From an uncultured delta proteobacterium (GTDB taxonomy: Bacteria; Myxococcota; UBA727; VGSZ01): a stretch of DNA of 64,000 nt. The notes under the pieces are model-generated. The model was given only the letters and a program-made list of their open reading frames with translations, was not told where the DNA came from and made no database searches. The translations under genes were made by a program, and so were the position numbers. The stretch lies in assembly GCA_963775425.1 (NCBI GenBank), contig CAVZJB010000016.1, positions 1,024,001 through 1,088,000 of the forward strand, given 5' to 3'. Of the stretch, positions 8,268-62,499 are shown piece after piece (the stretch's first letter is position 1; every line of letters begins with the position of its first letter).

Positions 8268-8313
8268 CCCGCGCCCCGGGCGGCGCGCGCGCGATGCGTG
8301 GCACCATCGAGGC

Positions 8314-9009: not shown

Positions 9010-9065
9010 GCGCGCGGACGGCGACCGGCGTTGGCATGCGCCGCCATTGCGGCTAACCGGCGCGC

Positions 9066-10372
<1,307 letters not shown>

Positions 10373-14252: not shown

Positions 14253-14264
14253 GAGGGGCTCCCG

Positions 14265-15941: not shown

Positions 15942-16782
15942 CCACGCCTCCTTCCGCCACCGCTTCCGCCACCGCGTCCGCCGCCCACGACGACGCCACG
16001 ACGGCGGCGCGCACGCTGACGACGTCGCCGACCACGATGACCGCCGGCGCCTGCACGCGAAGCACGCGCGCCTCGACGGCGAGCCGCTCGAGCGTGGTGG
16101 TGGTCACGCGCTCGCCGAGCTGCGCGCCGTTCTCCACGATGGCCACGGGCGTGTCCGGCCGCCGGCCTTCCTCGAGGAGCACCTCGACGATCCGCTCGAC
16201 GACGCGCACCGCCATGAGGAACACCAGCGTGCCCCCGGTGTGCGCCGCCGCGCGCCACGCGGCCTCGGGCGAGACCCGCACGCGCGTCATCCCCGTGAGC
16301 ACGGTGAACGAAGTGGCCACGCCGCGGTGGGTGACGGGGATGCCCGCGAGCGCCGGCACCGCCAATGCGCTCGACAGCCCGGGGACCACCTCACAGCGGA
16401 TGCCGTGCATGGCGAGGGCGAGGGCCTCCTCGGAGCCGCGCCCGAACACGTAGGGGTCGCCGCCCTTCAAGCGGACCACGAAGCGCCCCGCGCGCGCCTC
16501 CTCGACGAGCATCCCGCAGGTCAGCTCCTGCGCGGTCTGCGGCCCGCCGCCGATCTTGCCGACGTCGACGACGCGGGCGCCGGGGCGCACGAGCTCGAGC
16601 ACGCGCTCGTCGACGAGCGCGTCCACGAGGACCACGTCGGCCCGGCCGATGAGGCGCGCCGCGCGGACGGTGAGCAGGTCGGGGTCGCCTGGGCCGGCGC
16701 CGACGAGGGCGACGCAGCCGGCCCTCGGCCCGCCGCGCTCCTCGCGCGCGGCGCGCAGCGCGGTGCTCGAATCAAGCGGCAT
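15928..16782 (-). CDS. cobA: Uroporphyrinogen-III C-methyltransferase
   Basis: LVGAGPGDPDLLT, VRLKGGDPYVFGRG, VPGLSS and GIPVTHRG. Confidence 0.93.
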   Translation of the reverse strand: MPLDSSTALRAAREERGGPRAGCVALVGAGPGDPDLLTVRAARLIGRADVVLVDALVDERVLELVRPGARVVDVGKIGGGPQTAQELTCGMLVEEARAGRFVVRLKGGDPYVFGRGSEEALALAMHGIRCEVVPGLSSALAVPALAGIPVTHRGVATSFTVLTGMTRVRVSPEAAWRAAAHTGGTLVFLMAVRVVERIVEVLLEEGRRPDTPVAIVENGAQLGERVTTTTLERLAVEARVLRVQAPAVIVVGDVVSVRAAVVASSWAADAVAEAVAEGGVDVPV

Positions 16783-18445
16783 CGGTCCTCCCCGCACGGC
16801 GCCCGCTCACGCTGACGGCGGCGACGACGACGTCGACGAGCGCGTCGAGCGCGTCCGGCGCGTCGAGGGAGGCGCCGCCGAACGGCCGCAGCGCGCCCGG
16901 GACGTCGAAGCCGCACGCGAGCGCGATCAAGCCCGCCGCCGCCAGCACCTGCGCCGCGCGGCGATCGTCCGCGAGCGCGACCGCGAGGCCGCGCTCGAAC
17001 AGGGCGCGCTCGACGACGTTCGGGTCGAGGGAGCCGGGGATCACCACGGCCGCGCCCGTGTGCCCGAAGCGCCGCGCGCGCTCCCCGGCGTCGACGGCGC
17101 GGGTGGAGGCCGCGGCCTCGTCGTCGAGCGCGCCGGTGATGATGCCGCCGCCAGCGACGTCGCGGTCGTCGACGAGAACGAAGCGGGCGCTCGCCTGCAA
17201 CCGGCGATCGGAGTCGAACGCGATGGGCGCGCGCGTCTCGAGCACGACGTCCGCCACCTCGTCCTTCTTCACGCTTTTGGCCTCGTCGCTGGACGACAGC
17301 GAGCCCGCGTCCACCACGCGCTCGACCGCGACCACGCGCGCGTCCGCCTCGAGCGTGCACAGGCGGAGCTTCAGCCGTCGCTCGACGTCGAGGGTGCGCT
17401 TCCCGAGCCAGAACACACGCGCGCGCAACCTGCGCCCCACGTGCGCCCGCGCCTCGGCGCCCGGCGTGGACGACGGAGACGGCGACGCCCGCTCGGGAGT
17501 GGCGACCTGTCCGCGCTCCACGAAGATGGGGTCCGTGAGCGTGAGGCCGACCGAGTCGCCGGCCACCGCCACCGACGTAGACGGCGCCGCCCAGCGCTCG
17601 ATGGTCTTCACCGTCGACACCGCGCCGCTCGGCAGGAAGCGCAGGCGGTCGCCGGTGCGCAGCACGCCCGCGTCGATGCGGCCGGCGATGATGCGGCGGT
17701 CATCGAAGCGGTACACGTCCTGGACGAACAGCCGCAGGGGCAGCTCCTCGTTCGGCCGCGGGCCCTCGAGCGTCAAAAGCTCGTCGAGCACCGTGCGCCC
17801 GGCATACCAGGGCATGTGCGGGCTGCGCGCCACGATGTTTTCGCCCTCGCGCGCGACCACCGGGATGAACGCCCGCGCGGTGACGCCGACCGAAGCGAGG
17901 AACGCGCCGAGCTCGGTCTCGACCGCGCGGAACGCCTGCTCCGACCGGTCCACCCGATCGAGCTTGTTGACGACGACGACGACGTCTTCGATGCCGAGGA
18001 GCGCCAGGAGCTGCGCGTGCCGGCGCGACTGCTCGCGCACGCCCTCGTCCGCGGCGACGAGCAACACCGCGGCGTCGGCGGCGGCGGCGCCGGTGACCAT
18101 GTTGCGCAGGAACTCGCGGTGCCCGGGCGCGTCGACGAGCACCAGGGTGCGCTCCGGCAAGCGCAGCCAGACGGTGGACGCGTCGATGGTGACGTTCTGA
18201 TCGCGCTCCGCCTCGAGCGCGTCGAGGACAAACGCCATCTCGAACGGGACGCCCCGGCGCGCGCAGGAGGCGCGCACGCTCTCGAGCTTGCCCTCGGGCA
18301 GCGCGCCCGAGTCGGCGAGGAGGCGCCCGGTGAGGGTGGACTTGCCGTGGTCGACGTGGCCGACGAGGACGACGCGCAGCGGCGCCGCCGTCGACGGGGG
18401 TGCCGCCTCGGCAGGTGCGGGGCGCACGGCGCGGCGGGCCGTCAC
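16772..18445 (-). CDS. cysN: Sulfate adenylyltransferase subunit 1 (GTPase) with eroded C-terminal APS-kinase remnant
   Basis: GHVDHGKSTL, ERDQNVTID, DAPGH and VNKLD. The GTG at 18445 overlaps the cysD stop. Confidence 0.9.
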   Translation of the reverse strand: MTARRAVRPAPAEAAPPSTAAPLRVVLVGHVDHGKSTLTGRLLADSGALPEGKLESVRASCARRGVPFEMAFVLDALEAERDQNVTIDASTVWLRLPERTLVLVDAPGHREFLRNMVTGAAAADAAVLLVAADEGVREQSRRHAQLLALLGIEDVVVVVNKLDRVDRSEQAFRAVETELGAFLASVGVTARAFIPVVAREGENIVARSPHMPWYAGRTVLDELLTLEGPRPNEELPLRLFVQDVYRFDDRRIIAGRIDAGVLRTGDRLRFLPSGAVSTVKTIERWAAPSTSVAVAGDSVGLTLTDPIFVERGQVATPERASPSPSSTPGAEARAHVGRRLRARVFWLGKRTLDVERRLKLRLCTLEADARVVAVERVVDAGSLSSSDEAKSVKKDEVADVVLETRAPIAFDSDRRLQASARFVLVDDRDVAGGGIITGALDDEAAASTRAVDAGERARRFGHTGAAVVIPGSLDPNVVERALFERGLAVALADDRRAAQVLAAAGLIALACGFDVPGALRPFGGASLDAPDALDALVDVVVAAVSVSGRRAGRTDAA

Positions 18446-19326
18446 ATGTACCCCTGCGAGCGCAGGTGCTCGAACGCGTGCTCGCTCTCCTGGTCCTGCG
18501 CGCGCGTGCTGCGCTCGGCGACCTTGGTGGTGCGGAGCTCCTCGATGATCTCGGCCGTCGTCGATGCCGTGGACGCGATGGGCCGCGTGCACGGCGCGCA
18601 GCCGAGCGAGCGGTAGCGGACGCTCTCGCCGTCGGGCCCCGGGTGCGCGAAGTAGATGGGGACGACGGGGATCTGTTCGCGCTCGATGTAGCGCCACACG
18701 TCGATCTCGGTCCAGTGCAGCAGCGGATGCACGCGCACGTGGGTGCCCGGCGCCGTATCGATCTTGAACTGGTCCCAGAGCTCCGGCGGCTGCTCCTTCA
18801 CGTCCCACGCGTTGTCGACGCCGCGCGGAGAGAACACCCGCTCCTTGGCGCGCGTGCCCTCCTCGTCCCTGCGGATGCCGGCGATGACGGCGTCGTAGCC
18901 CTGCTCATGGATCACGCGGTTGAGCGGCTCGGTCTTGAGCGCACCGCAGCACTCGACCCGCGTGGCGTCGCCGTTTGGATAGGTGCGGCCGATGGCGACG
19001 AGGCCGTCGTCGAGACCGCGGTGCGCGCCGAGCGCGGCTTCGTTGCGCCCCACGATCAGGTCGAGGCCCCACTCGCGCGCGAGCCGGTCGCGGAACGCGA
19101 TCATCTCGGGGATCTTGTAGCTGGTGTCGACGTGGACGACGGGGAACGGCACGCGTCCGAAGAACGCCTTGCGCGTGAGCCAGAGCATCACGCTCGAGTC
19201 CTTGCCCACGCTCCACAGCATGGCGAGCCTGTCGAACGCCGCGCGCGCCTCGCGCAGGATGTAGATGGAGCGCGACTCGAGCTCGTCGAGGTCAGTCCTC
19301 GAGGTGGACGCTGCGTCATGCGGCAT
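18442..19326 (-). CDS. cysD: Sulfate adenylyltransferase subunit 2
   Basis: LDELESRSIYILRE, WSVGKDSSV, GIRRDEEGTRAKER and RYRSLGC. Confidence 0.95.
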   Translation of the reverse strand: MPHDAASTSRTDLDELESRSIYILREARAAFDRLAMLWSVGKDSSVMLWLTRKAFFGRVPFPVVHVDTSYKIPEMIAFRDRLAREWGLDLIVGRNEAALGAHRGLDDGLVAIGRTYPNGDATRVECCGALKTEPLNRVIHEQGYDAVIAGIRRDEEGTRAKERVFSPRGVDNAWDVKEQPPELWDQFKIDTAPGTHVRVHPLLHWTEIDVWRYIEREQIPVVPIYFAHPGPDGESVRYRSLGCAPCTRPIASTASTTAEIIEELRTTKVAERSTRAQDQESEHAFEHLRSQGYM

Positions 19327-20074
19327 GAGGGGCCTCCTTTCTCTGCTCGACCATAGCCGGGTGCGCCGGGTGCAGACCGCACTCCTTGTGCTCCGGCGCT
19401 TCCCACCACCAGCGGCCGGCACGAGGATTTTCTCCCGCTGCGACGGCGCGCGTGCACGGCGCGCAGCCGATGCTCGGGTAGCCCTGCGCGTGCAGCGCGC
19501 TCACGGGGACGTCGTGGACCGCGACGTACTTCCACAGCTCCGCGTCCGTCATGCGCCACAGCGGGCTGAGCTTCACGAGGCCGCGCTCGTCGAGAGCGAA
19601 CGGCGCGAGCGCGGCCCGCGTGGGCGACTGCGCCTGGCGAAGCCCCGTGGCCCACGCGCCGGCGCCGGCGAGCGCGCGACCGAGCGGCTCCACCTTGCGG
19701 ATGCGGCAGCACTCCTTGCGGTCCTCGACGCTGTTTCGGAACGAGCGCGTGCCCTTGATGGTCACGAGCGCCTCGACGGCGGCGCGCTCCGGAAAGAACA
19801 CCTCGACCTCGACGCCGTAGCGCGCGCGCACGCGGTCCATGACGTCGTAGGTCTCCTCGTGCAGCCGGCCGGTGTCGAGCGTGACGACGCGGAAGCGGCG
19901 CGACACGCGCTGCGCGATGTCGATGAGGACGACGTCTTCGGCCGAGAAGCTCGAGGCGAACACCAGCCCCGCGCCGAACCGCTGGATGCCCCACGCGACG
20001 ATCTGCTGGGCGCTCATCGTCGCCGCCCGCGCGTTGAGCGCGGCGACGTCGACGTCGTCATCGATGACGGTCAT
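19316..20074 (-). CDS. cysH: APS/PAPS reductase (4Fe-4S APS-reductase type)
   Basis: SSFSAED, LDTGRL, ECCRIRKVEPL, SIGCAPCT and KECGLH. Confidence 0.93.
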   Translation of the reverse strand: MTVIDDDVDVAALNARAATMSAQQIVAWGIQRFGAGLVFASSFSAEDVVLIDIAQRVSRRFRVVTLDTGRLHEETYDVMDRVRARYGVEVEVFFPERAAVEALVTIKGTRSFRNSVEDRKECCRIRKVEPLGRALAGAGAWATGLRQAQSPTRAALAPFALDERGLVKLSPLWRMTDAELWKYVAVHDVPVSALHAQGYPSIGCAPCTRAVAAGENPRAGRWWWEAPEHKECGLHPAHPAMVEQRKEAPHAA

Positions 20075-20323
20075 CAGATCCCCTCCATGGCATCGAGCGC
20101 GCGCGCTGCGGCGCCGGGCGGCGAGCCTGGTGGAACGAGAGCTCGCGCGCGCGCAGCCGGCCCGCGACGTCGAGGGCCGGCGAGCGCGAGCTCACATCGT
20201 CGGCGCGCTTGCGGCGAAAGAGCCGGCCGATCTGCGGCAGGGTCTTTGCCTCGAGCGCGAGCCTTCCGGCGGTTCCGAGGAGCGCGAAGAGCACGCTTCC
20301 CATGTGCCGCGCCGCGGCATGGC

Positions 20324-20484: not shown

Positions 20485-21579
20485 TCAGCGCGGGTAGCGC
20501 GCGGTGTCGCCGCGGAAACCTCGCAGGACGACGTGGTCCTCGGCCTCTTCGACGAGGGGGCTCGGCCCCATCGGCACCTTGCCGAGGCCGCCCGGCACGT
20601 CGACGACGAAGGTGGGGATGGACAGCCCGCTCAGGTGCCCGCGCAAGGAGCCGTACAGCGCGCGCGCCTCGTCGAGGGGCACGCGGAACGCCTCGGTGCC
20701 GGGGGCGAGGTCGCACTGGTGCAGGTAGTAGGGCCGCGCGCGCAGCCGCGTGAGCGTCCGGAACAGCTCGACGAGCACGGCGCGGTCGTCGTTGACGCCG
20801 CGCAGGAGCACCGTCTGGTTCAGCACCGGGACGCCGGCGTCGACGAGGGCGCCCACGGCCCGCCTGGTGACCTCGGGCTGAAGCTCGCGCGGGTGGTTGA
20901 AGTGCGACAGCACGTAGACGGCCTTTTCGCCCCGCCGCGCGCGGATGAGGTCGACGAGCTCCCGGGTCACCCGCGTGGGGGCGAACGCGAGCATCCGCGT
21001 CGCCAGGCGCACGACGTCGAGGTGCTCGATGCGCGCGAGCGCCGACAGTAGCGACGCCAGCCGCTCGTCGGGGAGCACCAGGGCGTCTCCGCCGGAGACG
21101 ATCACCTCGCGCACCTCTTCGTGCGCGCGGACGTAGCCGAGCGCGGCGCCGAGCTCGTCGAGGGAGGGTCCCGGCCCCTGCCCGACGAAGCGCTTGCGCG
21201 TACAAAAGCGGCAGTACGCGGCGCAGCGGTCGGTGGCGAGGAGCAGCACGCGGTCGGGGTAGCGGTGCACCAGGAACGGCACCACCTCGAGCTCCTCCTC
21301 GCCGAGCGGGTCCTTGCGGTCCCACGACGACGGCGCGAATTCCGCCGCGCGCGGCACCACCTGAAGCCGCAAGGGATCGCGCGGGTCGTCGCGGTCGATG
21401 AGCGAGAGGAAGTGCGGCGTGACCCCGAGGGGGAGCCCGCCTTGTGCTTCGAGCGCCTCGACGCCGGCGCGCTCATCCTCGCTCAAGCGGAGCGCGCTCT
21501 CGAGCTCGACGCGGCGGCGCAGCGCGCCCCGGAGCTGGGCGCGCCAATCGGCGGCGTCGTCGACGACGGGCAACGGCAC
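20485..21579 (-). CDS. KamA-family radical SAM enzyme (lysine 2,3-aminomutase/EpmB-like)
   Basis: DPLGEE, HRYPDRVLL, CAAYCRFC (CxxxCxxC), HFNHPRE, NQTVLLRGVND and PGGLGK. Confidence 0.92.
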   Translation of the reverse strand: MPLPVVDDAADWRAQLRGALRRRVELESALRLSEDERAGVEALEAQGGLPLGVTPHFLSLIDRDDPRDPLRLQVVPRAAEFAPSSWDRKDPLGEEELEVVPFLVHRYPDRVLLLATDRCAAYCRFCTRKRFVGQGPGPSLDELGAALGYVRAHEEVREVIVSGGDALVLPDERLASLLSALARIEHLDVVRLATRMLAFAPTRVTRELVDLIRARRGEKAVYVLSHFNHPRELQPEVTRRAVGALVDAGVPVLNQTVLLRGVNDDRAVLVELFRTLTRLRARPYYLHQCDLAPGTEAFRVPLDEARALYGSLRGHLSGLSIPTFVVDVPGGLGKVPMGPSPLVEEAEDHVVLRGFRGDTARYPR

Positions 21580-21658: not shown

Positions 21659-22366
21659 CTACTTGCGCTTGGCCTGGGCCTTCTTCTGGCCCTGGGCGCG
21701 CAGCTTGTCGACGTCCAGCCCCTTTTCGCGCATGGCCTCCTCGAGGACGGAGGCCGTGGCCTGGGCGAGCGCGCGGGCGCGGATGCCGAAGGGCTGCTCG
21801 CCCTTGGGGTCCAGGTCCACGGCGTGCTTGAGGTCCCGGAGGGCTTTTTCGATCTCGCCGTGCTGCAGGAGGATCTCGGCGCGGTTGACGTGGGACGCGA
21901 GGTCCTTGGGGTTCAGCTCGATGGCGATGGAGTACTCCTCCTGCGCCTCCTCGTGCATGCCCTTCCTGCCGTAGATGGAGCCGAGCAGCGAGTGGAAGTA
22001 CCCGTCGTACGGGTTGGAGATGACGAGCCCCTCGACGATGGTCTGGGCCTGGTCGTACTTGCCCTGCTCGAAGAGGTTGTACGCGATCTCGGCGAAGGCG
22101 TACGCGTCCTGCATGGTGAGCCCGGTGAGCTCGGCCCACGTGATCTCGCCCAGCACGAACTTGGTGAGGTTCTCGTCACTGAAGTTGGGCGTGTTGATCT
22201 CGCCCGCCTCCATCATCTGAATCACCTCGTCCTGCGAGTAGGTCGAGGGGTCGCGGCGGGGGTCGAAGATCTTCTTCTTTGCCTTGCCCTGCGCGGCCTT
22301 GCTCGTCTCGAGCTGTTTTGCGAGGGCGGAGGCCTTGGCGGATTCGTGGGTTGTCTTCGTCGCCAT
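21659..22366 (-). CDS. SycD/LcrH-like TPR chaperone (type III secretion class II type) with N-terminal extension
   Basis: GEITWAELTGLT...AYNLFEQGKYDQAQTIVEGLVISNPYD followed by three TPR-like repeats. Start placed at MATKTT. Confidence 0.75.
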   Translation of the reverse strand: MATKTTHESAKASALAKQLETSKAAQGKAKKKIFDPRRDPSTYSQDEVIQMMEAGEINTPNFSDENLTKFVLGEITWAELTGLTMQDAYAFAEIAYNLFEQGKYDQAQTIVEGLVISNPYDGYFHSLLGSIYGRKGMHEEAQEEYSIAIELNPKDLASHVNRAEILLQHGEIEKALRDLKHAVDLDPKGEQPFGIRARALAQATASVLEEAMREKGLDVDKLRAQGQKKAQAKRK

Positions 22367-22397
22367 ACGTGGACCCCAAGTAGCACGCCTGCCTGCC

Positions 22398-22431
22398 AAA
22401 AGGGAACGGCGCCGCCGAAGCAGCGCCGTTC
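22398..22431 (-). terminator. Intrinsic terminator with cUUCGg tetraloop
   Basis: The minus strand reads GAACGGCGCTGC-TTCG-GCGGCGCCGTTC-CCTTTT, a 12-bp stem with one G-U pair. It begins 18 nt after the stop of the 22450-23325 gene. Confidence 0.75.
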
Positions 22432-22449: not shown

Positions 22450-23325
22450 TCAGCCCGCCTTGATGTGGCGGATGGCGTTCATGGCCTGGTCGTTCATCGT
22501 GTTGAGCACGTTGCTCATGGCCTGCTGCATCTGCGACAGCTTCTGGATCTCGTTCTTGATGATCTCGAACTCGATGTTGCGGCTGTCGCTGTTGCCGTCC
22601 TGCGTCGCCCCGTTCACGCCGGGAGCGACCGCGCCGGTGGCCTGGCCCGCGACGTTGCCGCCGCTGTTGCTCTGGTTGTCCTTGGCCTCGAGCTCCTTCA
22701 GGCGCTCCTCGACCTTCTCCTGCTTGTCCTTGATGACGTCGATCATGAAGGCCGCGACGATGTCCTCGAACATCGCGGGCTTCGGCAGCGACGCCAGCAT
22801 GGAGCCGGGGCCCTGGTTCGAGCGCGTCATGCCGGTCATCTGGCGCACCTTGGCGGTGTTGTTGCCGAAGGCGAGCCGCATGCCGGTGCCGGCGACGTCA
22901 TTGAGCTGCATGCCCGTGGCGCCGCCCAGGATGCCGGTGAGCAGGTTGCCGATGCCCCCCTGCATGTTGGCCAGGCCGCCCATGGCGGTGAGGCCGAGGG
23001 CCGGGCCGGCGAGGCTGGCGAGGTTGAGCCCGCCACCGGCACCGCCCGAAAGGAAGCCCTTCGGGAGGACGTTCAGTGCAGCCGTAAGACCCAGTGTTGC
23101 CACAGGGGAATTGACACCGAAGGCCTTGAGAGCGTGCCGCGCGAGGGCGCCCTTGTTGACCTTGCTCAGGTCGAAGCCGTCCTTGGTCATGCCGCGCGAC
23201 AGCTCGGCGGCGAGGCCGATCATCTCCGCCGCCTTGTCCGGCACGCCGACCATCTTCAGAGCGCCCGAGAGGATGCCCGTCTTCGAGATACCAAACGCGC
23301 CCAATGCATCGCCGAGGAAACCCAT
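22450..23325 (-). CDS. Putative type III-secreted filament/translocator-like protein
   Basis: Gly/Leu-rich N-terminal half, then FEDIVAAFMIDVIKDKQEKVEERLKEL and a C-terminal amphipathic helix QKLSQMQQAMSNVLNTMNDQAMNAIRHIKAG. No signal peptide, GGAG RBS, flanked by two SycD-like genes. The CDS itself is secure; the function is inferred. Confidence 0.6.
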   Translation of the reverse strand: MGFLGDALGAFGISKTGILSGALKMVGVPDKAAEMIGLAAELSRGMTKDGFDLSKVNKGALARHALKAFGVNSPVATLGLTAALNVLPKGFLSGGAGGGLNLASLAGPALGLTAMGGLANMQGGIGNLLTGILGGATGMQLNDVAGTGMRLAFGNNTAKVRQMTGMTRSNQGPGSMLASLPKPAMFEDIVAAFMIDVIKDKQEKVEERLKELEAKDNQSNSGGNVAGQATGAVAPGVNGATQDGNSDSRNIEFEIIKNEIQKLSQMQQAMSNVLNTMNDQAMNAIRHIKAG

Positions 23326-23384
23326 GATGTACTCCGTGTGTTGTTGTCGCGCGGAACGACCGCCGTTCCAGCGGGACCAACAGG

Positions 23385-23410
23385 TTATCGCAGGACGGTT
23401 ACCCAGGTTG
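23385..23410 (-). promoter_or_regulatory. Putative sigma28(FliA)-like promoter, copy 1
   Basis: The minus strand reads CAAC-ctgggtaaccgtcct-GCGATAA (15-nt spacer), about 60 nt upstream of ATG 23325. The same arrangement occurs at 61265-61290. Confidence 0.6.
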
Positions 23411-23544
23411 CGGATGTCGGCGAAGGTGTGATCGGATCCGAAGTCCGTGTTTATCCTACATTTCCCGCGCTTCGGCCCGCCGCCGCGTCCGCTCGGGGTC
23501 CGGGATTTCCCCCGCCTCGACCCCGCGCGTTATTCATACGGCGG

Positions 23545-24012
23545 ATGCCCGAGCCGGTAGATCCCCAGAAGCTGCCCGCGCTCCTGCCGAAATGGGCCGC
23601 CGGCCAGATCACGTTGAAGGAGCTCAAGGGCTACTCGGACGACGAGCTCTACGCCATCGCGCACACCGGCTACTTCTTCCTGATGCAGGGGAAGAACCAC
23701 GAGGCGCGCACGCTGTTCGAGGGCCTCGTCGCCATCGACCCGCGCAACGACTACTACTACCGCGCGCTCGGCGTGATCTTTCACAAGCTCGGCGACGCCG
23801 AGCGCGCGCTCAAGCAGTTCGGCTACGCCATCCGCGTGAGCCCGCGCTCGCCGAACGCCTACGTCAACCGCGCCGAGGTCTTCATCTCGACGTCGCGCTA
23901 CCAGGAGGCCGCCGGCGACCTGCGCCGCGCCCTCGAGCACATGGGGCCCCGCGACGTCGCGCTCGCCCGCAAGGCGCGCGCGCTCCTGGGCGTCGTCACG
24001 CGGAGACGATGA
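23545..24012 (+). CDS. Second SycD/LcrH-like TPR chaperone
   Basis: GQITLKELKGYSDDELYAIAHTGYFFLMQGKNHEARTLFEGLVAIDPRNDYYYRALG closely follows the SycD/LcrH N-terminal pattern. It is hidden at the end of the long 22465 ORF in the track. Confidence 0.8.
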   Translation: MPEPVDPQKLPALLPKWAAGQITLKELKGYSDDELYAIAHTGYFFLMQGKNHEARTLFEGLVAIDPRNDYYYRALGVIFHKLGDAERALKQFGYAIRVSPRSPNAYVNRAEVFISTSRYQEAAGDLRRALEHMGPRDVALARKARALLGVVTRRR

Positions 24013-24112: not shown

Positions 24113-24820
24113 ATGGCCGTCGAGCGCGCGGTCCTGCTCATCGCGGACATCGGCGGGTACACGCGCTTCATGACGTACCACCGGCTGAACCTCGCGCACG
24201 CGCAGGACACCATCGCGCGCCTGCTCGAGGCGGTCATCGACGCCGCCGGCCGGTTCAAGCTCGCCAAGCTCGAGGGCGACGCCGCGTTCTTCGCCGGCCC
24301 CGTCGCCGACGACACCGGCGACGCCGTCGCGGGCATGCGGCGCGCTTTCCTCAAACAGAAGAACAAGCTGGTCTCGGACCGCATGTGCACGTGCGACTCG
24401 TGCATGCAGATCGAGATGCTCAAGCTGAAGTTCGTGCTCCACGAGGGCGAGCTCGTGCGACAGAAGGTGAAGGGTCGCGAGGAGCTCGCGGGCGTCGACG
24501 TCATCCTCGTGCACCGCATGCTCAAAAACGACGTCCCGCTGAAGGAGTACGTGCTGGCCTCCGACCAGGCCAAAAAGCACGTCTCGCCGCTCGGCGAGCC
24601 CACCGAGATCATGCACAGCCTCGAGGGGCTCGGCGACGTGCGCACCCACTACGTCGACCTCACGACGCTGTCACTCGACGAGCCGCCGCCTCCGCCGCCC
24701 AAGGGGCTCAGGAAGCTCCTCACCAAGATCGCGTTCGAGGCCCGCTCGCTGCCGTACCTGATCGGCCTCAAAGAGCCGTGCAAGGACTTCGACTCGGTGC
24801 CCAAGCCCGACGAACGCTGA
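24113..24820 (+). CDS. DUF2652 family protein (nucleotide-cyclase-like fold)
   Basis: LLIADIGGYTRFM, KLEGDAAFF, CTCDSC, LKLKFVLHEGE and GVDVILVHRMLKN. Confidence 0.85.
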   Translation: MAVERAVLLIADIGGYTRFMTYHRLNLAHAQDTIARLLEAVIDAAGRFKLAKLEGDAAFFAGPVADDTGDAVAGMRRAFLKQKNKLVSDRMCTCDSCMQIEMLKLKFVLHEGELVRQKVKGREELAGVDVILVHRMLKNDVPLKEYVLASDQAKKHVSPLGEPTEIMHSLEGLGDVRTHYVDLTTLSLDEPPPPPPKGLRKLLTKIAFEARSLPYLIGLKEPCKDFDSVPKPDER

Positions 24821-25464: not shown

Positions 25465-26868
25465 TCACGCGCGGTAACGGGCGACGCGCAGGGCGGCGGC
25501 GAAGTCGGCGGCGGCGACGCGGGCGCTGTCGGGCTCGAGCTGTTCGATCTTGTCGTTGAGGGCCGCGCGCGCCTGCTCCCAGACGGCGTCGAACGCGCCG
25601 GCCTTCTCGACGACGAGGTGGAAGAGCTTCTCCGCGGGCTGCTTGTTGCCGTAGACGCCCGGACGAAAGAGCGTGAAGTCCCACGCGTAGGTGGCGGCGC
25701 CGTCGCCGTCGTCGTCGCGGACGATGGCGGCGAGGCCGGCGCTTATCTGCTCGGTGAGCGAGACCACCTCCCAGTGCCCCTCCTCGTGCTCGTCCTCGTC
25801 GTCGACGACGTTGGTGTGCCCGCGCCGCTCGTCGGCGATGTCCTCGTCGCCGGCGGGGGCGTTGCCGTCGCGCCCGGCCTTCCACGGATCGTCGACGTCG
25901 CCGGCCGCGCCGTCGGCGTGCGCCCCGGGGGCGCCGCTGTGCGCGAGCTCCTGCGGGGCGTCGCGCGCCTCGGCGCCGCGCGCCCCGTCGCCTCTCTGCG
26001 CGCCGTCGCCGCGGTCGGCGCGGCCGTCGCCGCGCGCGCCGTCGTCGCCGCGGGCGCTCCCCTCGGTGCGCGCGTCCTCACCGTGGGCGGCGGGAGCGCC
26101 TGAGCGTCCGTCGCCGGCGCGCGCCTCGTCGGCGGCGCGCGCGTCGCGGTTGTCCGACGACGTCAGCGGCAGCGCGCGCTCGTCGACGATGCCGCGGCGG
26201 ACCAGCGCCTCTGCGGTCTTTCCGTCGAGCTGCCCGGAGGCAGGGAGGCCCTCGGCGCGCTGCAGCTTCTTGAGCGCGTCCTTGAGCTGCTCGGCGCCCT
26301 TGCCGCCACCCGCGAAGCCCGCCGCGCGCAGCGACGACAGGAAGCTCTTCAGGTCGAGCTCGGGGGGCTTGTCGCGCGCGGACTTGTCCACCGCCTGCTC
26401 GAGCTCGACCGCCTGCGCGCTCCTGGCGCCCTCGGGGACGCCGGCGTCGCCACGGGGCAAGCCGAGGTCGCCGCCGAGCCGGCGCCCGTCGGCGTCGAAC
26501 GACGCGGGCCGCTCGCCCGCTCGCGCCGGCGCCGTCGTCGACGACGCCTCCTCGGCGCCGCGCGGCATGAGCCCGGCCTCCTCGAGCGCCGCGTGCGTCT
26601 CGTGATCGAGCACGCCGGTCTCCGGCAGGCCGCGCTCCTTCTGGAACAGCTTCAGCGCCTGCGCGAGCTCGCCGTCCGCGTTGCCCGTCTTGGCGACGGG
26701 GAAGCCGGCGGCGCGCAGCCCGGCCAGGAGCTGGGCGACGAGCTTCTTCGCCTCCGTCGGCGTGCGCGCCGAGCCGAAGTCCATGAGCCGCTGCAGCGGC
26801 GACTTCGGTTGTTGCCGCGCGGGCCGCGGCGCTTGCGGGAGCTCCGGGTGCTTTGCGCGGATGGCCAT
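25465..26868 (-). CDS. Protein with two peptidoglycan-binding-like (PG_binding_1) repeats and an unknown C-terminal domain
   Basis: LRAAGF...ALKLFQKERGLPETGVLDHETHAAL and LRAAGF...ALKKLQRAEGLPASGQLDGKTAEAL. Confidence 0.8.
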   Translation of the reverse strand: MAIRAKHPELPQAPRPARQQPKSPLQRLMDFGSARTPTEAKKLVAQLLAGLRAAGFPVAKTGNADGELAQALKLFQKERGLPETGVLDHETHAALEEAGLMPRGAEEASSTTAPARAGERPASFDADGRRLGGDLGLPRGDAGVPEGARSAQAVELEQAVDKSARDKPPELDLKSFLSSLRAAGFAGGGKGAEQLKDALKKLQRAEGLPASGQLDGKTAEALVRRGIVDERALPLTSSDNRDARAADEARAGDGRSGAPAAHGEDARTEGSARGDDGARGDGRADRGDGAQRGDGARGAEARDAPQELAHSGAPGAHADGAAGDVDDPWKAGRDGNAPAGDEDIADERRGHTNVVDDEDEHEEGHWEVVSLTEQISAGLAAIVRDDDGDGAATYAWDFTLFRPGVYGNKQPAEKLFHLVVEKAGAFDAVWEQARAALNDKIEQLEPDSARVAAADFAAALRVARYRA

Positions 26869-26911
26869 GGCGCACGACGAGGTTAGCCGATATGCGGCGC
26901 GCGGAGGTCCC

Positions 26912-29125
26912 ATGCTCCATGTCGTCGTCATCGCGGCCCTCGCTGCCGCGCCGAGCCTGTCCACGCAGAAGGCGGCCCCCGCCCCCCGCAAGGAGAACGC
27001 CGTGAAGTATCCCGTCGCCAAGAAGGGCAACGTCGTCGACGACTACCACGGGCAGAAGATCGCCGACCCGTACCGCTGGCTCGAGGACCCCGACGCCGAC
27101 GACACGCGCGCGTGGGTGAAGGCAGAAAACGAGGTCACCTTCGGCTGGCTCGACCGCGTCCCCGACCGCGACGCGCTCAAGCAGCGGCTCACCGAGCTGT
27201 GGAACTACGAGCGGTACAGCCCACCCTCCGTCGAGGGCAAGGGCAAGGACCAGCGCGTGTTCTTCTTCAAGAACGACGGCCTCCAGAACCAGGCGGTGCT
27301 CTACGTGCAGGACGTCCACGGCGGCGACGCCCGCGCGCAAGACGGCGTCAAGCTGTCGGCGCCGCGGGTGCTCCTCGACCCCAACACGTGGACCAAGGAC
27401 GGGACCGTGGCCCTGTCGGGGATGAGCGTCAGCGACGACGGCAGGCTCATGGCGTACGCCAGGTCCGTCGGCGGCAGCGACTGGATGGAGTGGCACGTCA
27501 TGGACGTGCGCACGGGCAAGGACCTTCCCGACGTCGTCAAGTGGTCCAAATTCTCCGGCGCCTCGTGGACCAAGGACGACAAGGGCTTCTTCTACTCGCG
27601 CTACCCGGAGCCCAAGAAGGGCGAGGACCTCGAGCAGGCCAACTACCACCAGAAGGTCTACTACCACCGCCTCGGCGAGCCGCAGGACAAGGACACCCTC
27701 GTCGTCGAGGACAAGGACCACAAGACGTGGGGCTTTTCCGCAGGCGTCACGGAGGACGGCCGCTACCTGCTGGTCCACGTCTGGGACGGCACCGACCGCC
27801 GCACCCGCGTCTGGTTCAAGGACCTGCACCAGAAGAAGGACGGGCCGCTCGTCAAGCTGTTCAACGACTTCGACGCCGCCTACGGCGTGCTCGGCAACGT
27901 CGGGAGCACGTTCTACGTGCAAACGGATCTCGACGCCCCCCGCCAACGCGTCGTGAGCGTGGACGTCGCGCACTTCAAGGAGGGCGACAAGCCCAAGCTC
28001 GTCGAGGTCATCCCGGAGGCGCCGAAAGACAAGCTCGACAGCGCCACGATGATCGGCGGCGGCTTCCTGGTGCGCTGGCTGCAGAACGCGCACGACGTCG
28101 TCACCATCCACGACATCCACGGCAAGAAGCTGCGCGACGTCGTCCTGCCGTCCATCGGCACCACCGGCGGCTTCGCCGGCCGCCAGAACGACAGCGAGAC
28201 CTGGTACGCCTTCACCTCGTTCACCTACCCGACGGTCATCTACAAGCTCGACGTGTCGTCCGGCGTGTCGACGCTGTTTCAACAGCCCAAGGTCAAGTTC
28301 AACCCCGCCGACTACGAGACCAAGCAGGTCTTCTACACGTCCAAGGACGGCACCCGGATCCCGATGTTCCTCGTGCACAAAAAGGGGCTCGCCTACGACG
28401 GCAAGAACCCCACGTACCTGTACGCCTACGGCGGCTTCAACATCTCGCTCACCCCGGCGTTCTCCACGGCGCTCATCGCTTGGCTCGAGAAGGGCGGCGT
28501 ATACGCGCAGCCGTCCCTGCGCGGCGGCGGCGAATTCGGCGAGGAGTGGCACCAGGCGGGCATGCTCGACAAGAAGCAGAACGTCTTCGACGACTTCGCG
28601 GCGGCGGCCCGGTGGCTCGTCGACAACGGGGTGACGTCACACGAGCGCCTCGGCATCGGCGGCGGGAGCAACGGGGGCCTGTTGTGCGGGGCCACCGTCA
28701 CGCAGCACCCGGAGCTCGTGGGCGCCGCCGTGTGCATGGTGGGCGTCATGGACATGCTGCGGTTCCACAAGTTCACCATCGGCCACGCGTGGGTGAGCGA
28801 GTACGGCAGCAGCGACGATCCGAAGATGTTCCCGGTGCTGCGCGCGTACTCCCCGCTGCACAACCTCAAGGAGGGCGTGAAGTACCCCGCCACGCTCATC
28901 ACCACCGCCGACCACGACGACCGCGTCGTCCCCGCGCACTCCTTCAAGTTCGCCGCCACCATGCAGGAGGCGCAGGGGGGCGACGCGCCCGTGCTCATCC
29001 GTATCGAGGTGAAGGCCGGCCACGGCGCGGGCAAGCCCACCTCCAAGCTCATCGAAGAGGCCGCTGACCGCTGGGCGTTCCTGCGGGCGGCCCTCGGCGT
29101 CGAAGAGCTCACCCCCGCGCGCTGA
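26912..29125 (+). CDS. Prolyl oligopeptidase (S9A), secreted
   Basis: DPYRWLED, YGGFNIS, GGSNGG (Ser), DHDDRV (Asp) and AGHGAGK (His), plus a signal peptide and GGAGG RBS. Confidence 0.97.
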   Translation: MLHVVVIAALAAAPSLSTQKAAPAPRKENAVKYPVAKKGNVVDDYHGQKIADPYRWLEDPDADDTRAWVKAENEVTFGWLDRVPDRDALKQRLTELWNYERYSPPSVEGKGKDQRVFFFKNDGLQNQAVLYVQDVHGGDARAQDGVKLSAPRVLLDPNTWTKDGTVALSGMSVSDDGRLMAYARSVGGSDWMEWHVMDVRTGKDLPDVVKWSKFSGASWTKDDKGFFYSRYPEPKKGEDLEQANYHQKVYYHRLGEPQDKDTLVVEDKDHKTWGFSAGVTEDGRYLLVHVWDGTDRRTRVWFKDLHQKKDGPLVKLFNDFDAAYGVLGNVGSTFYVQTDLDAPRQRVVSVDVAHFKEGDKPKLVEVIPEAPKDKLDSATMIGGGFLVRWLQNAHDVVTIHDIHGKKLRDVVLPSIGTTGGFAGRQNDSETWYAFTSFTYPTVIYKLDVSSGVSTLFQQPKVKFNPADYETKQVFYTSKDGTRIPMFLVHKKGLAYDGKNPTYLYAYGGFNISLTPAFSTALIAWLEKGGVYAQPSLRGGGEFGEEWHQAGMLDKKQNVFDDFAAAARWLVDNGVTSHERLGIGGGSNGGLLCGATVTQHPELVGAAVCMVGVMDMLRFHKFTIGHAWVSEYGSSDDPKMFPVLRAYSPLHNLKEGVKYPATLITTADHDDRVVPAHSFKFAATMQEAQGGDAPVLIRIEVKAGHGAGKPTSKLIEEAADRWAFLRAALGVEELTPAR

Positions 29126-29144: not shown

Positions 29145-31121
29145 TCAGCCGCCGCAGACGGCGGCGGCGTCGACGGCGCAGTCGGTGGTGTCGACGGAGT
29201 TTCCGGTGTTGGTGAGCGCCGGCGCCGTCGACATCTGCGCCGCCAGCGCGTCGACCATGCACGCGGGGAGCTGCGGGTTCTGTTGAACCACCAGCGTGGT
29301 GGCGGAGCCGAGGTGCGCGAGCCCGTCGACGCTGGTCACGCGGGTGTTCTTGAGCGTCAGCGACGTCACCGACGCCAGACCGCACAGATCGAGGGACGTG
29401 ATGCGCGCGCCGTCGACGACGACGACGGGCGCGGTGGTGAGCGTAGGGAGCGAGAGGTCCGTGACGTCGCTGGTGCCGCCGAAGGTGTCGATGTCGAACA
29501 CGAGCTGGCCGACGTCCTCGAGGGCCGTGAGCTTGGCGAGATCGGCCTGGTCGAGCCCGGTGATGTTGAGGTTTCCGCCGACCGTGGTGAACGCGGACAG
29601 CTCGTCCTCGAGGACGGCCGGGAAGAGGAGGACGTCGCCGTCGACGGAGACGAGCTGGATCAGGCCATGGATGTCGTCGTCGTTGGGCAGGAGGAGCCCG
29701 CCGGCGCCGACGTGGGTGAGGCCGGCGAGGCTCACGCTCGTGAGCAGGTTGTTGGCGGTGATCTCGAGGCCGCCGACGTCCGTGAGCGCGTCGAGGTCGA
29801 GGCTGCCGACGTCGGTGCCGACGTAGTGGAGCGTGCCGTCCACCGTCCGGAGGCTGTGGAGGTCGAACGAGGTGACTGCGCTGTTGTCGTCGGGGACGAC
29901 GCCGACGTTCGGGTCGGTGAAGGCGTTGCCGACGATGCGGAGGTCGCCGGGCCGATAGAAGCCGCTGGCGAGCGCGTCGTCGTAGAACCGGGAGTAGAGC
30001 TGCGACTGGAAGTCGTCGACGGCGTGGATCTGCTCGAGGGCCCCGAAGTCGAGCTGGAGCTCGCTGCCGTTTTTGAGGTTGTCGTTGCTGTCGAGGAGCA
30101 GCGTCCCGGTGCCGGTGAGCACGGGGAACGAGACGCGCGTGAGGACGTCGTTGCCGAAGAGGACGACGGAGCCGCCGATGGTGGTGAGGGCGGGCAGGTT
30201 GAGCGTGGTGAGCTTGTCGGCGTCCTCGAGATCGAAGAAGCCCCCGATGGTCGCGAGCTGGTGCGCGTCGAGGGCGGCGAGGAGCGGGAGCGTGGCGGCG
30301 ACAGCGCCGTCGGCGCTCGGGAAGCTCGGATACTTGTACGTGCTCCAGGCCACGCCGCCGCCGACGTCGTGGAGCGCGGGCACGCTCAGGCTCTGCAGGA
30401 GGGCGAGGGCCTCGACGAAGAAGTCGCCGCCTACGGACGTGAGGGACTCGAGGTCGACGGCGGTGAGATCGGCGTCGCTGTCGACGATGAGGTCGCCGTC
30501 GACGACGGCGAGCTCGGGCATGTCGAGACCGGTGAGCCCGGTGACGCCGATGACATGCAGGTTGCCGTGGACCACGGCGAGCTTCATGGCGGAGACGTCG
30601 TTGAGGGAGACGCCGTCGGCGGTGACGTCGCCGTCGACCTCCTCCACGCCGGCGGCGGCGTCGACGTCGGCCTGGCTCCCGAGCGTGAGGGCCTCGCGCA
30701 GGACCTTCCTGACGTGCACGGTGACGGAGGCGTCGACGATGTCGGTGGTGGCGCCCTGGCACGCGAGCGTGACGACGACGTCGCCCGCGTCCTGGAAGCT
30801 CGCGGTGGCGGAGCCGTTCACGTCGATGGTCTGCCCGGGGAGCGCGTCGAGCCCGCAGGTGAGGGCGTTGTCGGTGCTCCAGGTGAAGGTGACCTCCTCC
30901 TCGCCGGCGTCGCGCACGGCGGCTTTGTCGACGGTGAAGGCGTCGATGGTGGGGGCCGGCGGCGCGTCGCCCGGGAGGCACGCCTTGCTCGCGCTGCAGA
31001 AGTAGCCCGACGGGCACGCGCCGTCGCACGGCAGCCCGAAGGCGGGCGCGTCGCTCGCCGGGATGGGGCAGGCCGCGAGGAGCGCGACCGGCGCGAGCGC
31101 GCCGAGCGCGCGGGCCCTCAT
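29145..31121 (-). CDS. Lipoprotein with Cys-rich N-terminus, Ig-like domain and receptor-L-domain/LRR-like repeats
   Basis: Internal start MRARALGALAPVALLAAC (lipobox) with a GGGGG RBS. Many LxxVGGxLxIxxNxxLxxLxL repeats. Confidence 0.75.
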   Translation of the reverse strand: MRARALGALAPVALLAACPIPASDAPAFGLPCDGACPSGYFCSASKACLPGDAPPAPTIDAFTVDKAAVRDAGEEEVTFTWSTDNALTCGLDALPGQTIDVNGSATASFQDAGDVVVTLACQGATTDIVDASVTVHVRKVLREALTLGSQADVDAAAGVEEVDGDVTADGVSLNDVSAMKLAVVHGNLHVIGVTGLTGLDMPELAVVDGDLIVDSDADLTAVDLESLTSVGGDFFVEALALLQSLSVPALHDVGGGVAWSTYKYPSFPSADGAVAATLPLLAALDAHQLATIGGFFDLEDADKLTTLNLPALTTIGGSVVLFGNDVLTRVSFPVLTGTGTLLLDSNDNLKNGSELQLDFGALEQIHAVDDFQSQLYSRFYDDALASGFYRPGDLRIVGNAFTDPNVGVVPDDNSAVTSFDLHSLRTVDGTLHYVGTDVGSLDLDALTDVGGLEITANNLLTSVSLAGLTHVGAGGLLLPNDDDIHGLIQLVSVDGDVLLFPAVLEDELSAFTTVGGNLNITGLDQADLAKLTALEDVGQLVFDIDTFGGTSDVTDLSLPTLTTAPVVVVDGARITSLDLCGLASVTSLTLKNTRVTSVDGLAHLGSATTLVVQQNPQLPACMVDALAAQMSTAPALTNTGNSVDTTDCAVDAAAVCGG

Positions 31122-32087: not shown

Positions 32088-32153
32088 GGTGCCCATTGCT
32101 AGCACAGGCCCCGCGCGCCGGCCGCGGCGACGGGGCGCGGCGCGGGACGGGGC

Positions 32154-61264: not shown

Positions 61265-61290
61265 TTATCGCCGAACGGGGCCGGGGGTTG
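61265..61290 (-). promoter_or_regulatory. Putative sigma28(FliA)-like promoter, copy 2, embedded in the 3' end of sctU
   Basis: The minus strand reads CAAC-ccccggccccgttcg-GCGATAA (15-nt spacer). The TAA is the sctU stop, 20 nt upstream of ATG 61244. Confidence 0.6.
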
Positions 61291-62413
61291 TGGCCGGCTG
61301 TTTCTGTTGATTTTGCGGTGACTTACGTCGGCGCCGCTCCTCGGCCGCCTTGGCCTCGCGCTCCTTCAGCTCGTAGACGAAGTTCAGGACCTCGGCGACG
61401 GCCTCGTAGAGCTCCTCGGGGATCTCCTCGTCGAGCTCGAGCTTGTTGAGCGCCTGCGCGAGCGGGACGTTTCGCAGGATGGGGACGCCCGCGTCGCGCG
61501 CGATGTCCTTGATGGTCTCCGCGTTCTTGCGCATGCCCTTGGCGACGACACGCGGCGCGCCGCCGTTTTCCTTGTCGTACTTGATGGCGACGGCAATGTG
61601 AGCAGGGTTCACGACGACAGCATCGGCGTTGGCCACGTTTTGTTGACTCCCATGCAGGATCAGCTCCTCGGCGAGCGCGCGCCGCTCGGACTTCATGTGC
61701 GGATCGCCCTCGGACTGCTTGTATTCCTGCTTCACGTCGTACTTCGACATCTTCATGTCTTTCATGAAGACGTGCCGCTGCCAGAAGAAGTCGGCGACCG
61801 CGATGATGACGAAGAGGAAGCCGACGCGGACGGCGATGTTGTACATGATCTGCCCGCCGACGGCGACGCCGGTCCACAGGTCGATGCGCGCCGACAACAC
61901 CACCTCGCGGGCGCTCTCCTTCACGCTGCTGTAGGCCACGTAGCTCACCATGAGGAACTTGATGAGCTGCTTGAGGCTCTCGACGAGCTTCTTCTTGGAG
62001 AAGAGGTTCTTGAAGCCGTCGACCGGGTTGAGCTTCTTGATGTCGGGCTTCAGCGGCTCCGCGGTGAAGAGGAAGCCGACCTGCATGTAGTTCGACACGA
62101 GCGCGGACACGACGGCGGCGCCGAGGATGGGCGCGCACGCGAGGAACACCGTCCACAGCGCCTGCTGCAGAACGTCGACGACGATGGGGAGGTCGCCACC
62201 GCGGCGGACGGCGCTGTCGATGGCCGCCCACAAAAACCTGCGCAGCCGGTCCGCCGTCATGCTGAAGGTGAGCGCCGTCGTCGCAAAGACGATGATGAAG
62301 CCGAGGGCCTGGATGGCGTCCTGGCTCTTGGACACCTGGCCCTTGTCGCGCGCCTGCTTCAGCTTTTGCGGCGAGGCCTCCTCGGTCTTCTCGCCGGTTC
62401 CGCCGTCGGACAT
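61265..62413 (-). CDS. sctU: Type III export apparatus switch protein SctU/FlhB family
   Basis: GEKTEEASPQKLKQARDKGQVSKS, KLNPVDGFKNLFS, MKMSKYDVKQEYKQSEGDP, NPAH, APRVVAKG and NVPLAQAL. Confidence 0.93.
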   Translation of the reverse strand: MSDGGTGEKTEEASPQKLKQARDKGQVSKSQDAIQALGFIIVFATTALTFSMTADRLRRFLWAAIDSAVRRGGDLPIVVDVLQQALWTVFLACAPILGAAVVSALVSNYMQVGFLFTAEPLKPDIKKLNPVDGFKNLFSKKKLVESLKQLIKFLMVSYVAYSSVKESAREVVLSARIDLWTGVAVGGQIMYNIAVRVGFLFVIIAVADFFWQRHVFMKDMKMSKYDVKQEYKQSEGDPHMKSERRALAEELILHGSQQNVANADAVVVNPAHIAVAIKYDKENGGAPRVVAKGMRKNAETIKDIARDAGVPILRNVPLAQALNKLELDEEIPEELYEAVAEVLNFVYELKEREAKAAEERRRRKSPQNQQKQPATTPGPVRR

Positions 62414-62499
62414 GGGGGCAACATACCGCGCCACGACGTCACCGTGTCCCTGTGCAGGAACGGCCGGCGTGCTATGCGGCACCTCCCACGAGGTGCGCG

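Follow-up and report, generated by a model that had tools for sequence, protein, structure and literature searches.

A family of hypothetical proteins with a conserved C-terminal module, encoded between SycD/LcrH-like TPR genes in an uncultured myxobacterial relative: tentative translocator-like clients of type III secretion

In a stretch of 64,000 nucleotides from an uncultured delta proteobacterium of the phylum Myxococcota (assembly GCA_963775425.1, contig CAVZJB010000016.1, positions 1,024,001 to 1,088,000; the whole stretch is called the window below), we analyzed a minus-strand gene for a protein of 291 amino acids, here called the target. The gene lies between two genes for tetratricopeptide repeat (TPR) proteins that resemble the SycD/LcrH chaperones of type III secretion systems (T3SS). 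Its product belongs to a large unnamed family with a conserved C-terminal module, and one subfamily carries a segment similar to the SseC/YopB translocators. We tentatively read the target as a chaperone-held, membrane-active, translocator-like substrate of a myxobacterial T3SS, with a probability of roughly 45%. The TPR sandwich, the fixed C-terminal module and the SseC-like segment of a sister subfamily make a translocator-like client a better fit than a needle or filament subunit. An earlier sequence-only reading had proposed an abundant, self-polymerising T3SS subunit with an added Gly-rich region that possibly inserts into membranes. Its link to type III secretion and its idea of a membrane region found some support, whereas the homology to needle or EspA proteins did not, and the chaperones appear to be of the translocator class. 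The main features are the following.

22450..23325, minus strand: target coding sequence, 291 amino acids, stop included (open reading frame list; ATG at 23325, stop at 22450)
22831..23325, minus strand: N-terminal half, residues 1-165, Gly/Ala/Leu-rich with GxxxG-type spacing (composition and hydropathy; low-confidence prediction)
22663..22770, minus strand: conserved helix 1, residues 186-221, opening with an invariant F-E-D (alignment, DSSP)
22591..22662, minus strand: variable polar linker, Gly/Asn-rich, residues 222-245 (alignment)
22456..22590, minus strand: conserved helix 2, residues 246-290, with the family signature, at the extreme C-terminus (invariant and near-invariant columns)
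21659..22366, minus strand: downstream large TPR gene, 235 amino acids, ATG at 22366 (alternative TTG at 22399), SycD/LcrH-like
23545..24012, plus strand: upstream, divergent small TPR gene, 155 amino acids, SycD/LcrH-like and of class II chaperone size

The target open reading frame is a real gene. Its codon positions follow the pattern of a coding sequence, with a G+C content at third positions (GC3) of 0.89 in a window of 71.7% GC, and its start methionine is common to the homologues in the alignment. The AT-richer codons noticed before in the 5' part are present, and the effect is modest (GC3 of 0.80 in codons 1-30 and 0.67 in codons 61-90, compared to 0.90-1.00 elsewhere). The protein contains 44 Gly, 38 Ala and 31 Leu among its 291 residues and is free of Cys, Trp and Tyr. 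By inspection of the sequence we agree that it has no signal peptide, and its composition confirms the hydrophobic Gly/Leu/Ala-rich region that had been assigned to the N-terminal half; this moderately hydrophobic stretch spans residues ~66-140. An AlphaFold2 model of the full-length protein, calculated from a 32-row alignment, reached a predicted local distance difference test (pLDDT) value of 53.4 and showed helices at residues 186-221 and 246-290 with a Gly/Asn-rich loop between them, as the claim of two helices around a polar loop had it. For the N-terminal half, pLDDT was <50 over most of the length. When the C-terminal 116 residues were modelled with a 92-row alignment, the helices were found at fragment positions 11-46 and 68-115, with pLDDT 64.8 overall and ~72 within the helices and a predicted template modelling score (pTM) of 0.35.

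No family model in Pfam or NCBIfam matches the target. A word-indexed search returned 118 homologues, all of them annotated as 'hypothetical', and a profile of 32 of these (A1) was the basis of an exhaustive HMMER search. Clustered at 50% identity, the family comprises 383 clusters at E 0.001, 235 at 1e-10 and 57 at 1e-30. The lengths of the 150 members listed range from 57 to 721 amino acids. Its taxonomic range was read from the few named records: those of the first search come from metagenome-assembled genomes (MAGs) labelled Deltaproteobacteria, and the named records altogether are Myxococcota or "Deltaproteobacteria" MAGs, except for one contig of 3.7 kb labelled Opitutaceae. This contig (JAHFTI010000002.1, locus L001) is the closest public locus among the matches listed, and its label is probably a binning error, since all other loci are labelled Myxococcota or Deltaproteobacteria. 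Cultured myxobacteria such as Myxococcus xanthus do not occur among the named matches listed.

The conserved part of the family consists of a helix that begins with F-E-D (F186, E187 and D188 are invariant in profile A1), a Gly-rich, variable linker and another helix, which bears the signature S-R-N...QKLSQMQQAMSNVLN...IR.I in the family alignment. Of 149 members scanned, 102 carry the helix-2 motif, and in all 102 its first residue lies 42-44 residues before the C-terminus. The linker, polar in the target, is replaced elsewhere in the family by a hydrophobic Gly-zipper hairpin; its hydropathy is at least 1.6 in 11 of 86 members and at least 1.0 in 42 of them. Sub-threshold C19orf12 and glycine-zipper matches, in 13 and 6 of the 149 members, sit on Gly-rich segments that belong either to the linker or to the part ahead of the conserved helices. 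Such hairpins, and the likeness of one subfamily to SseC/YopB that is described below, support the earlier suggestion of a Gly-rich region that may insert into membranes. Cys is absent from 53 of the 149 relatives.

A quick IQ-TREE tree of 115 of the 118 proteins from the first search (those of at least 200 amino acids) resolved four groups, given here with their SH-aLRT support and the number of rows with contig evidence for a TPR gene.

Window's clade: 38 rows, SH-aLRT 99, 16 rows with TPR contig evidence
Sister clade, longer forms: 12 rows, SH-aLRT 80, 6 rows with TPR contig evidence
'P0038-type' clade: 32 rows, SH-aLRT 90, 2 rows with TPR contig evidence
Group of ~240 amino acids: 33 rows, SH-aLRT 100, 1 row with TPR contig evidence

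In their N-terminal halves the window type and the P0038 type are homologous (hhalign 99%). A circular permutation, by which the hydrophobic N-terminal half of the window's protein would be the relocated linker of other members, was tried and rejected (hhalign 0.1%). Several paralogues can occur in one genome: MAG SP234 has two in tandem and a third elsewhere, and MAG K_DeepCast_35m_m1_088 has two (sites 8120-9271 and 9434-10588 of L007 and 9050-10228 of L010; also L005 and L008). Paralogues within a genome have the C-terminal module in common and differ in their upstream parts, which suggests that they are components that could co-assemble. In two short proteins, P0166 and P0236, a trypsin-like peptidase domain or a GST N-terminal domain is joined to the last conserved helix only. 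These could be true fusions, with the helix as a portable C-terminal tag, or gene-calling artefacts on metagenome fragments.

One link to type III secretion is provided by the two flanking TPR proteins. For both of them the best NCBIfam model is TIGR02552, the SycD/LcrH class II chaperone model, which is 8-14 orders of magnitude ahead of the next one and is covered from end to end. The small TPR protein matches it with E 6e-23 and 81 bits (model positions 3-133 of 136), the large one with E 3e-21 and 75.5 bits (positions 4-131 of 136). Against the PDB, the small protein aligns with PcrH (E 5.6e-9, residues 18-150 against 6-140) and also with AcrH and SycD; its BLASTP match to AcrH has E 2e-10 with 24% identity over 137 amino acids. 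It has no lipoprotein signal and aligns with the cytoplasmic class II chaperones, which are all-helical, measure ~150 amino acids and contain three TPRs, as fits its own size. The large protein has a conserved N-terminal extension followed by a TPR core that aligns with SycD (E 1.2e-7) and PcrH (7.7e-7). According to passages of a 2026 review, TIGR02552 defines the class II chaperones, which serve translocon components via an N-terminal P/VxLxxP anchor, and needle subunits are held by a TPR-like subunit together with a small co-chaperone (PMC13466201). The NCBIfam match lists of the flanking TPR proteins contain no class III chaperone model, and on these matches both are predicted to belong to the translocator class and not to the needle class.

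The arrangement is conserved. A scan of genome contigs for related loci confirmed at least 11 of them from 598 pattern matches. In L001 (70% identity) and L002 (65%), both TPR genes stand in the same positions around the homologue. In L007 (36%), a large TPR gene lies beside a KamA-like gene, ~3 kb from two tandem paralogues. Adjacency to class II-type chaperone genes is thus found fully in L001 and L002 and partly in L007. The sizes of the longest contigs also coincide between homologues of the target and those of the small TPR protein (11 cases, 8 of them >4 kb, among the best 120 of 400) or the large one (17 cases, 12 of them >4 kb, among the best 120 of 221); a few of the coincidences on short contigs could be due to chance.

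For the comparison with known T3SS proteins we used AopB, AopD and AcrH (L012), MxiH and MxiI (L013), EspA, EspD, EspB and EscF (L014) and YopB and YscF (L015), all from annotated records, as references. The Pfam SseC model (PF04888) matches 6 of the 149 family members at E ≤ 1. An individual scan of 96 of the 149 at E ≤ 0.005 found it in P0144, P0134, P0143, P0103 and P0090, and in 33 further members, mostly the longest ones, there was no SseC match. The best match, P0144, has E 3e-7 and 30.8 bits, compared to a gathering score of 30.2. In all five matches seen individually, helix 1 and the hydrophobic linker align to profile positions 22-149. A profile of 14 members of this SseC-like subfamily (A3) retrieved AopB as its first match in the PDB (E 0.0049). 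In hhalign it reached 29% with AopB alone and 73% (E 3e-5, 56 columns) with a joint profile of AopB, YopB and EspD. BLASTP gave E 1e-5 for P0144 with AopB and E 0.011 for P0143 with EspD. The common stretch holds the junction G-I-F-x-K-x-F-G, which leads from the coiled coil to the first hydrophobic segment.

SctE translocators (YopB, AopB, EspD, SseC) are composed of a coiled-coil helix, a Gly/Ala-rich hydrophobic segment and a C-terminal amphipathic helix. Like the target, they lack a signal peptide and are encoded beside a gene for a SycD/LcrH-type TPR chaperone, and it is their region from the coiled coil to the first transmembrane helix that one subfamily of the new family matches. Unlike them, the target is ~100 residues shorter and carries its hydrophobic region ahead of the conserved helices instead of between them, its gene lies outside any T3SS cluster, and its C-terminal signature is absent from the reference translocators. 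A similar picture emerges from operons of the lcrH-yopB-yopD type. There, as here, a class II-like chaperone gene adjoins the presumed client, and the tandem client paralogues of L007 recall the translocator pairs of these operons. In the window, however, two different chaperone-like genes surround one client, one of them divergent and the other behind a terminator, and no gene for a tip protein or for the apparatus is nearby.

One gene of the T3SS export apparatus is present in the window.

61265..62482, minus strand: SctU export-apparatus gene, 38 kb from the target (Pfam Bac_export_2, E 3e-111)

Its product scores 361 bits against the NCBIfam SctU model TIGR01404 (cut-off 358), so the genome encodes at least one T3SS export component. 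This stand-alone gene of the SctU/FlhB family is divergent from an uncharacterised coiled-coil gene at 62452-63357 and is itself followed by an uncharacterised gene of 161 amino acids. Its autocleavage motif is N-P-A-H, where the usual form is N-P-T-H.

The target gene has transcription and translation signals of its own.

23332..23335, minus strand: ribosome-binding site GGAG, 6 nucleotides ahead of the ATG (read directly)
22395..22431, minus strand: intrinsic terminator-like hairpin with a short run of U, located 3' of the target and ahead of the downstream TPR gene
23385..23411, minus strand: conserved promoter-like block that ends ~60 nucleotides upstream of the ATG (upstream alignment)
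23452..23464, minus strand: another conserved upstream block, GAAATGTAGGATA, located between the divergent target and small TPR genes, kept in all three regions compared (window, L001, L002)

The ribosome-binding site and the UUCG terminator had both been pointed out from the letters and are indeed there. The hairpin (22431-22404) has a 12-bp stem and a UUCG loop, followed by CCCUUUUGG. Its energy is -29 kcal/mol (z = -3.1), none of 200 shuffled sequences was as stable, and matching hairpins with a U5 tail are located 3' of the homologues in L001 and L002 at the same position. The gene also has a conserved upstream motif of its own. A sigma-70 promoter is not supported, as a scan found 0 sites, whereas the block at 23411-23385, CGCAACC-N14-CTGCGATAACCT, is kept in 3 of 3 upstream regions (window, L001 and L002). 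Its core GCAACC-N15-CGATAA occurs once in the window, compared to 0.02 occurrences expected, and resembles promoters of alternative sigma factors (ECF or sigma-28). The GAAATGTAGGATA block may serve as an operator, or else as promoter of the divergent small TPR gene.

The target could instead be a self-polymerising axial subunit, i.e., a needle, an EspA-like filament or a tip protein, whose C-terminal hairpin polymerises and whose TPR neighbours act like YscG; this looks quite improbable to us. EspA is a T3SS-secreted helical protein that assembles via a C-terminal coiled-coil helix, to which the target has been likened, and the needle subunits SctF (MxiH, YscF, EscF) end in a helix-loop-helix as the target does, here with strongly conserved polar Gln, Asn and Ser positions. 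In SctF the C-terminal helix is held before export by a TPR-type chaperone, YscG or PscG, as passages of the review describe (PMC13466201). A promoter and a terminator of its own would suit a major structural subunit, and a monomeric hairpin that is not confidently packed (pTM 0.35) is expected if partners are needed. The C-terminal pattern K-x7-M(S/T)N-x4-M-x-D-x5-I, which the sequence-only reading had matched to such subunits, is present in the target, and in an hhalign alignment QAMSNVLNTM of the target shares 6 of 10 residues with the terminal helix of EspA (161-170). EspA alone among the references has such a stretch, which gives the proposed match a real, if small, foundation; the full pattern, however, occurs in 0 of 8 reference proteins (EspA, EspD, EspB, EscF, MxiH, MxiI, AopB and AopD). 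Language-model neighbours, which are leads only by the tool's own statistics, include a needle cluster for residues 180-291 (0.91; 27% of its members with PF09392). Those named for the whole protein are needle clusters (0.89 and 0.81), a family of chlamydial T3SS effectors (0.80), a cluster from Myxococcota with NolX in 12% of its members (0.79) and EspA (0.78). Against an axial subunit, the profile of the family's C-terminal module (A6) aligns in hhalign with MxiH at 0.4%, EscF at 0.6%, EspA at 1.2% (not significant) and a three-needle profile at 2.2%, and BLASTP of the target with EspA gave E 0.28. The Pfam models T3SS_needle_F (PF09392) and EspA (PF03433) do not match the target and are absent from the 25 families listed for the 149 members. 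EspA has no Gly-rich hydrophobic half, and its chaperone is of the helical CesA type according to the same review, compared to TPR proteins here (PMC13466201). SctF proteins measure 70-90 amino acids with a short PxxP turn, whereas the target has 291 and a variable, Gly-rich linker of at least 24 residues. SctF systems also include a small co-chaperone, for which no gene was seen here, and the flanking TPR proteins fit class II.

A structural search, which was to reveal similarity to T3SS proteins, gave generic helical hairpins only. The full-length model had 4 Foldseek matches at E ≤ 10, all meaningless. The C-terminal model (pLDDT 64.8, pTM 0.35) had 0 matches at E ≤ 0.001 and 244 at E ≤ 10, such as prefoldin, DksA2 and nucleoporins; the ranks listed contain neither a needle chain nor one of EspA. 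In sequence searches of the PDB, the single target sequence reached NupG at E 0.58, and all matches of profile A6 had E ≥ 0.28 (AopB E 1.5). Profile A1 found XaxA as its best match in the PDB, over helix 1 and the Gly-rich hydrophobic hairpin. This points to a further possibility: the target may be a pore-forming, alpha-helical toxin or resemble a bacteriocin, reach the outside of the cell by lysis, in vesicles or through a Tad/Kil system, and kill prey or competitors alone. XaxA/YaxA toxins follow the order coiled coil, Gly-rich hydrophobic hairpin, coiled coil, like part of the family (11 of 86 members), the target is Cys-free and Gly-rich, and many homologues of the small TPR protein are named TadD by JGI. 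We nevertheless judge a toxin quite improbable. The XaxA match, at E 0.16, is not significant, XaxA is larger and works with a B component, and no such partner was seen here. No immunity-like small membrane gene is evident beside the target, and the related loci yielded neither Tad nor toxin-immunity genes. The small TPR protein, moreover, has the features of a cytoplasmic chaperone given above, and the missing signal peptide means that another export route would still be required. The 15% Gly and the lack of Cys would fit harpins, the Gly-rich, Cys-free proteins that plant pathogens secrete by T3SS, as well, but no harpin family is among the Pfam matches.

Several results weigh against the translocator-like reading itself. 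The target has no SseC match at E ≤ 1, its BLASTP match to AopB has E 0.21, and profile A1 reaches in hhalign 0.4% with AopB, 0.1% with AopD and 2% with AopB, YopB and EspD together. The SseC, AopB and hhalign matches of the sister subfamily rest on a Gly/Ala-rich hydrophobic segment; in the AopB match the HMMER composition-bias term is 9.0, compared to a score of 20.0 bits. The P/VxLxxP chaperone-binding motif does not occur in the target and is found in 2 of the 118 homologues, at non-equivalent positions, and the only approximation to this anchor in the target is a relaxed A-S-L-P-K-P at residues 178-183. The hydropathy scan found no clear transmembrane-helix hairpin, with a peak 19-residue Kyte-Doolittle mean of 1.14-1.28, compared to the value of 1.6 usual for a transmembrane helix and used as threshold here; a Gly-zipper-like region is present. 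Foldseek gave no specific match. Both TPR proteins stay below the curated TIGR02552 cut-off of 104.8 bits, generic TPR proteins (designed or eukaryotic) outscore the T3SS chaperones in the PDB for both of them, and the TadD label of many small-TPR homologues points elsewhere. No TPR gene was found in the available flanks of L003-L006 and L008-L011, and rows with evidence for TPR genes are rare in two of the four subfamilies (2 of 32 in the P0038-type clade, 1 of 33 in the group of ~240 amino acids). T3SS apparatus genes are absent within 10 kb in all 12 loci, i.e., beside the target and in the 11 related ones, and beside the SctU gene, itself 38 kb off, no sctR, sctS or sctT was found. The neighbours in the related loci are housekeeping genes, namely for the KamA-like radical SAM enzyme, trigger factor and FadI/FadJ.

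Much of this would suit a T3SS-independent, membrane-associated coiled-coil protein with TPR partners, acting in envelope stress, lipid binding or as a scaffold, for which the likeness to T3SS proteins would be a matter of generic composition and TPR repeats. Pfam coiled-coil noise matches, to OmpH and ApoC-I in 14 of the 149 members each, go in the same direction. We consider such a protein, the main rival of the translocator-like reading, somewhat unlikely; it stays alive as an explanation because of the absence of nearby apparatus genes and the sub-threshold scores. It does not readily account for the lead and the end-to-end coverage of TIGR02552, for the agreement in register of the SseC, AopB, YopB and EspD matches, which includes the G-I-F-x-K-x-F-G junction, or for language-model neighbours that are T3SS substrates. 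Myxobacteria, in addition, keep LcrH homologues together with a T3SS, as passages of one of the papers cited below indicate (PMC10433427).

Some neighbouring genes complete the description of the locus. Immediately 3' of the large TPR gene, the window, L001 and L007 each carry a gene of the KamA family, for a radical SAM enzyme similar to lysine 2,3-aminomutase.

20485-21579 of the window, minus strand: KamA-family gene
2586-3473 of L001: KamA-family gene
3511-4647 of L007: KamA-family gene

The pairing of KamA and large TPR genes is kept across distant genomes. On the other side, a DUF2652 gene (24113-24820) comes next after the small TPR gene, likewise on the plus strand. Four further regions of the window lie on the minus strand. 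A sulfate-assimilation cluster at 13830-20191 comprises DUF934, sulfite reductase, tetrapyrrole methylase, a CysN-type GTPase and two genes of the PAPS-reductase family. The gene at 25465-27030 (521 amino acids) encodes a peptidoglycan-binding domain and a long low-complexity stretch rich in Asp, Gly and Arg, and that at 29145-32105 (986 amino acids) encodes a lipoprotein-like N-terminus and long repeats with no Pfam match. At 56107-60219, a fusion of 1370 amino acids joins the catalytic domain of a 2-oxoacid acyltransferase (E2) to 2-oxoglutarate dehydrogenase E1, a form that is best known from actinobacteria.

For the translocator-like substrate that we favour, we infer chaperone binding, secretion by a T3SS, membrane insertion and oligomerisation. 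The protein would be made in the cytoplasm without a signal peptide, and one or both neighbouring SycD/LcrH-type TPR chaperones would hold it before export. Its alternative-sigma-type promoter and its terminator may allow a higher or separately timed expression than that of the downstream chaperone gene. Export would proceed via a myxobacterial T3SS apparatus of the type known from Myxococcus, which has no needle. Once outside, the protein would act in a translocator-like manner: the Gly/Ala/Leu-rich glycine-zipper region may insert into or perturb a target membrane, and the two C-terminal helices are predicted to pair as an alpha-hairpin through which the protein assembles with other copies of itself or with paralogues bearing the same hairpin.

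The T3SS of M. xanthus, T3SS*, gives this reading its biological setting. The myxobacterial T3SS is required for prey lysis. Passages of reviews and of a 2025 paper describe several LcrH homologues in the T3SS* gene cluster; according to them, secretin, needle and translocon are missing from T3SS*, and none of its effectors is known (PMC10433427, PMC12075869, PMC12428579). In the tree of non-flagellar T3SS by Abby and Rocha, the root position is taken by the Myxococcales system, as passages of their paper state (PMC3459982). Keyword searches of open-access full texts, which are blind to sequence families, returned no paper that names clients of the myxobacterial LcrH homologues. A bolder idea, which we hold to be improbable, sees in the family the missing extracellular component of the ancestral, needle-less T3SS in Myxococcota, one that perforates membranes. 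Several paralogues per genome, with one C-terminal assembly hairpin in common and with different glycine-zipper or hydrophobic inserts, would have dedicated SycD/LcrH-type chaperones, be exported on contact with prey and assemble together into a pore or tip in the prey envelope. If this were true, the family would represent a translocon lineage that predates the YopB/SseC translocators of injectisomes and is only distantly related to them. Even if the translocator reading is wrong, a large unnamed family of 383 clusters with a sharply conserved C-terminal module is worth naming. Located between two chaperone genes, its members are concrete candidates for what the LcrH-type chaperones hold and the machine exports, and having such candidates makes the question of the cargo open to simple experiments.

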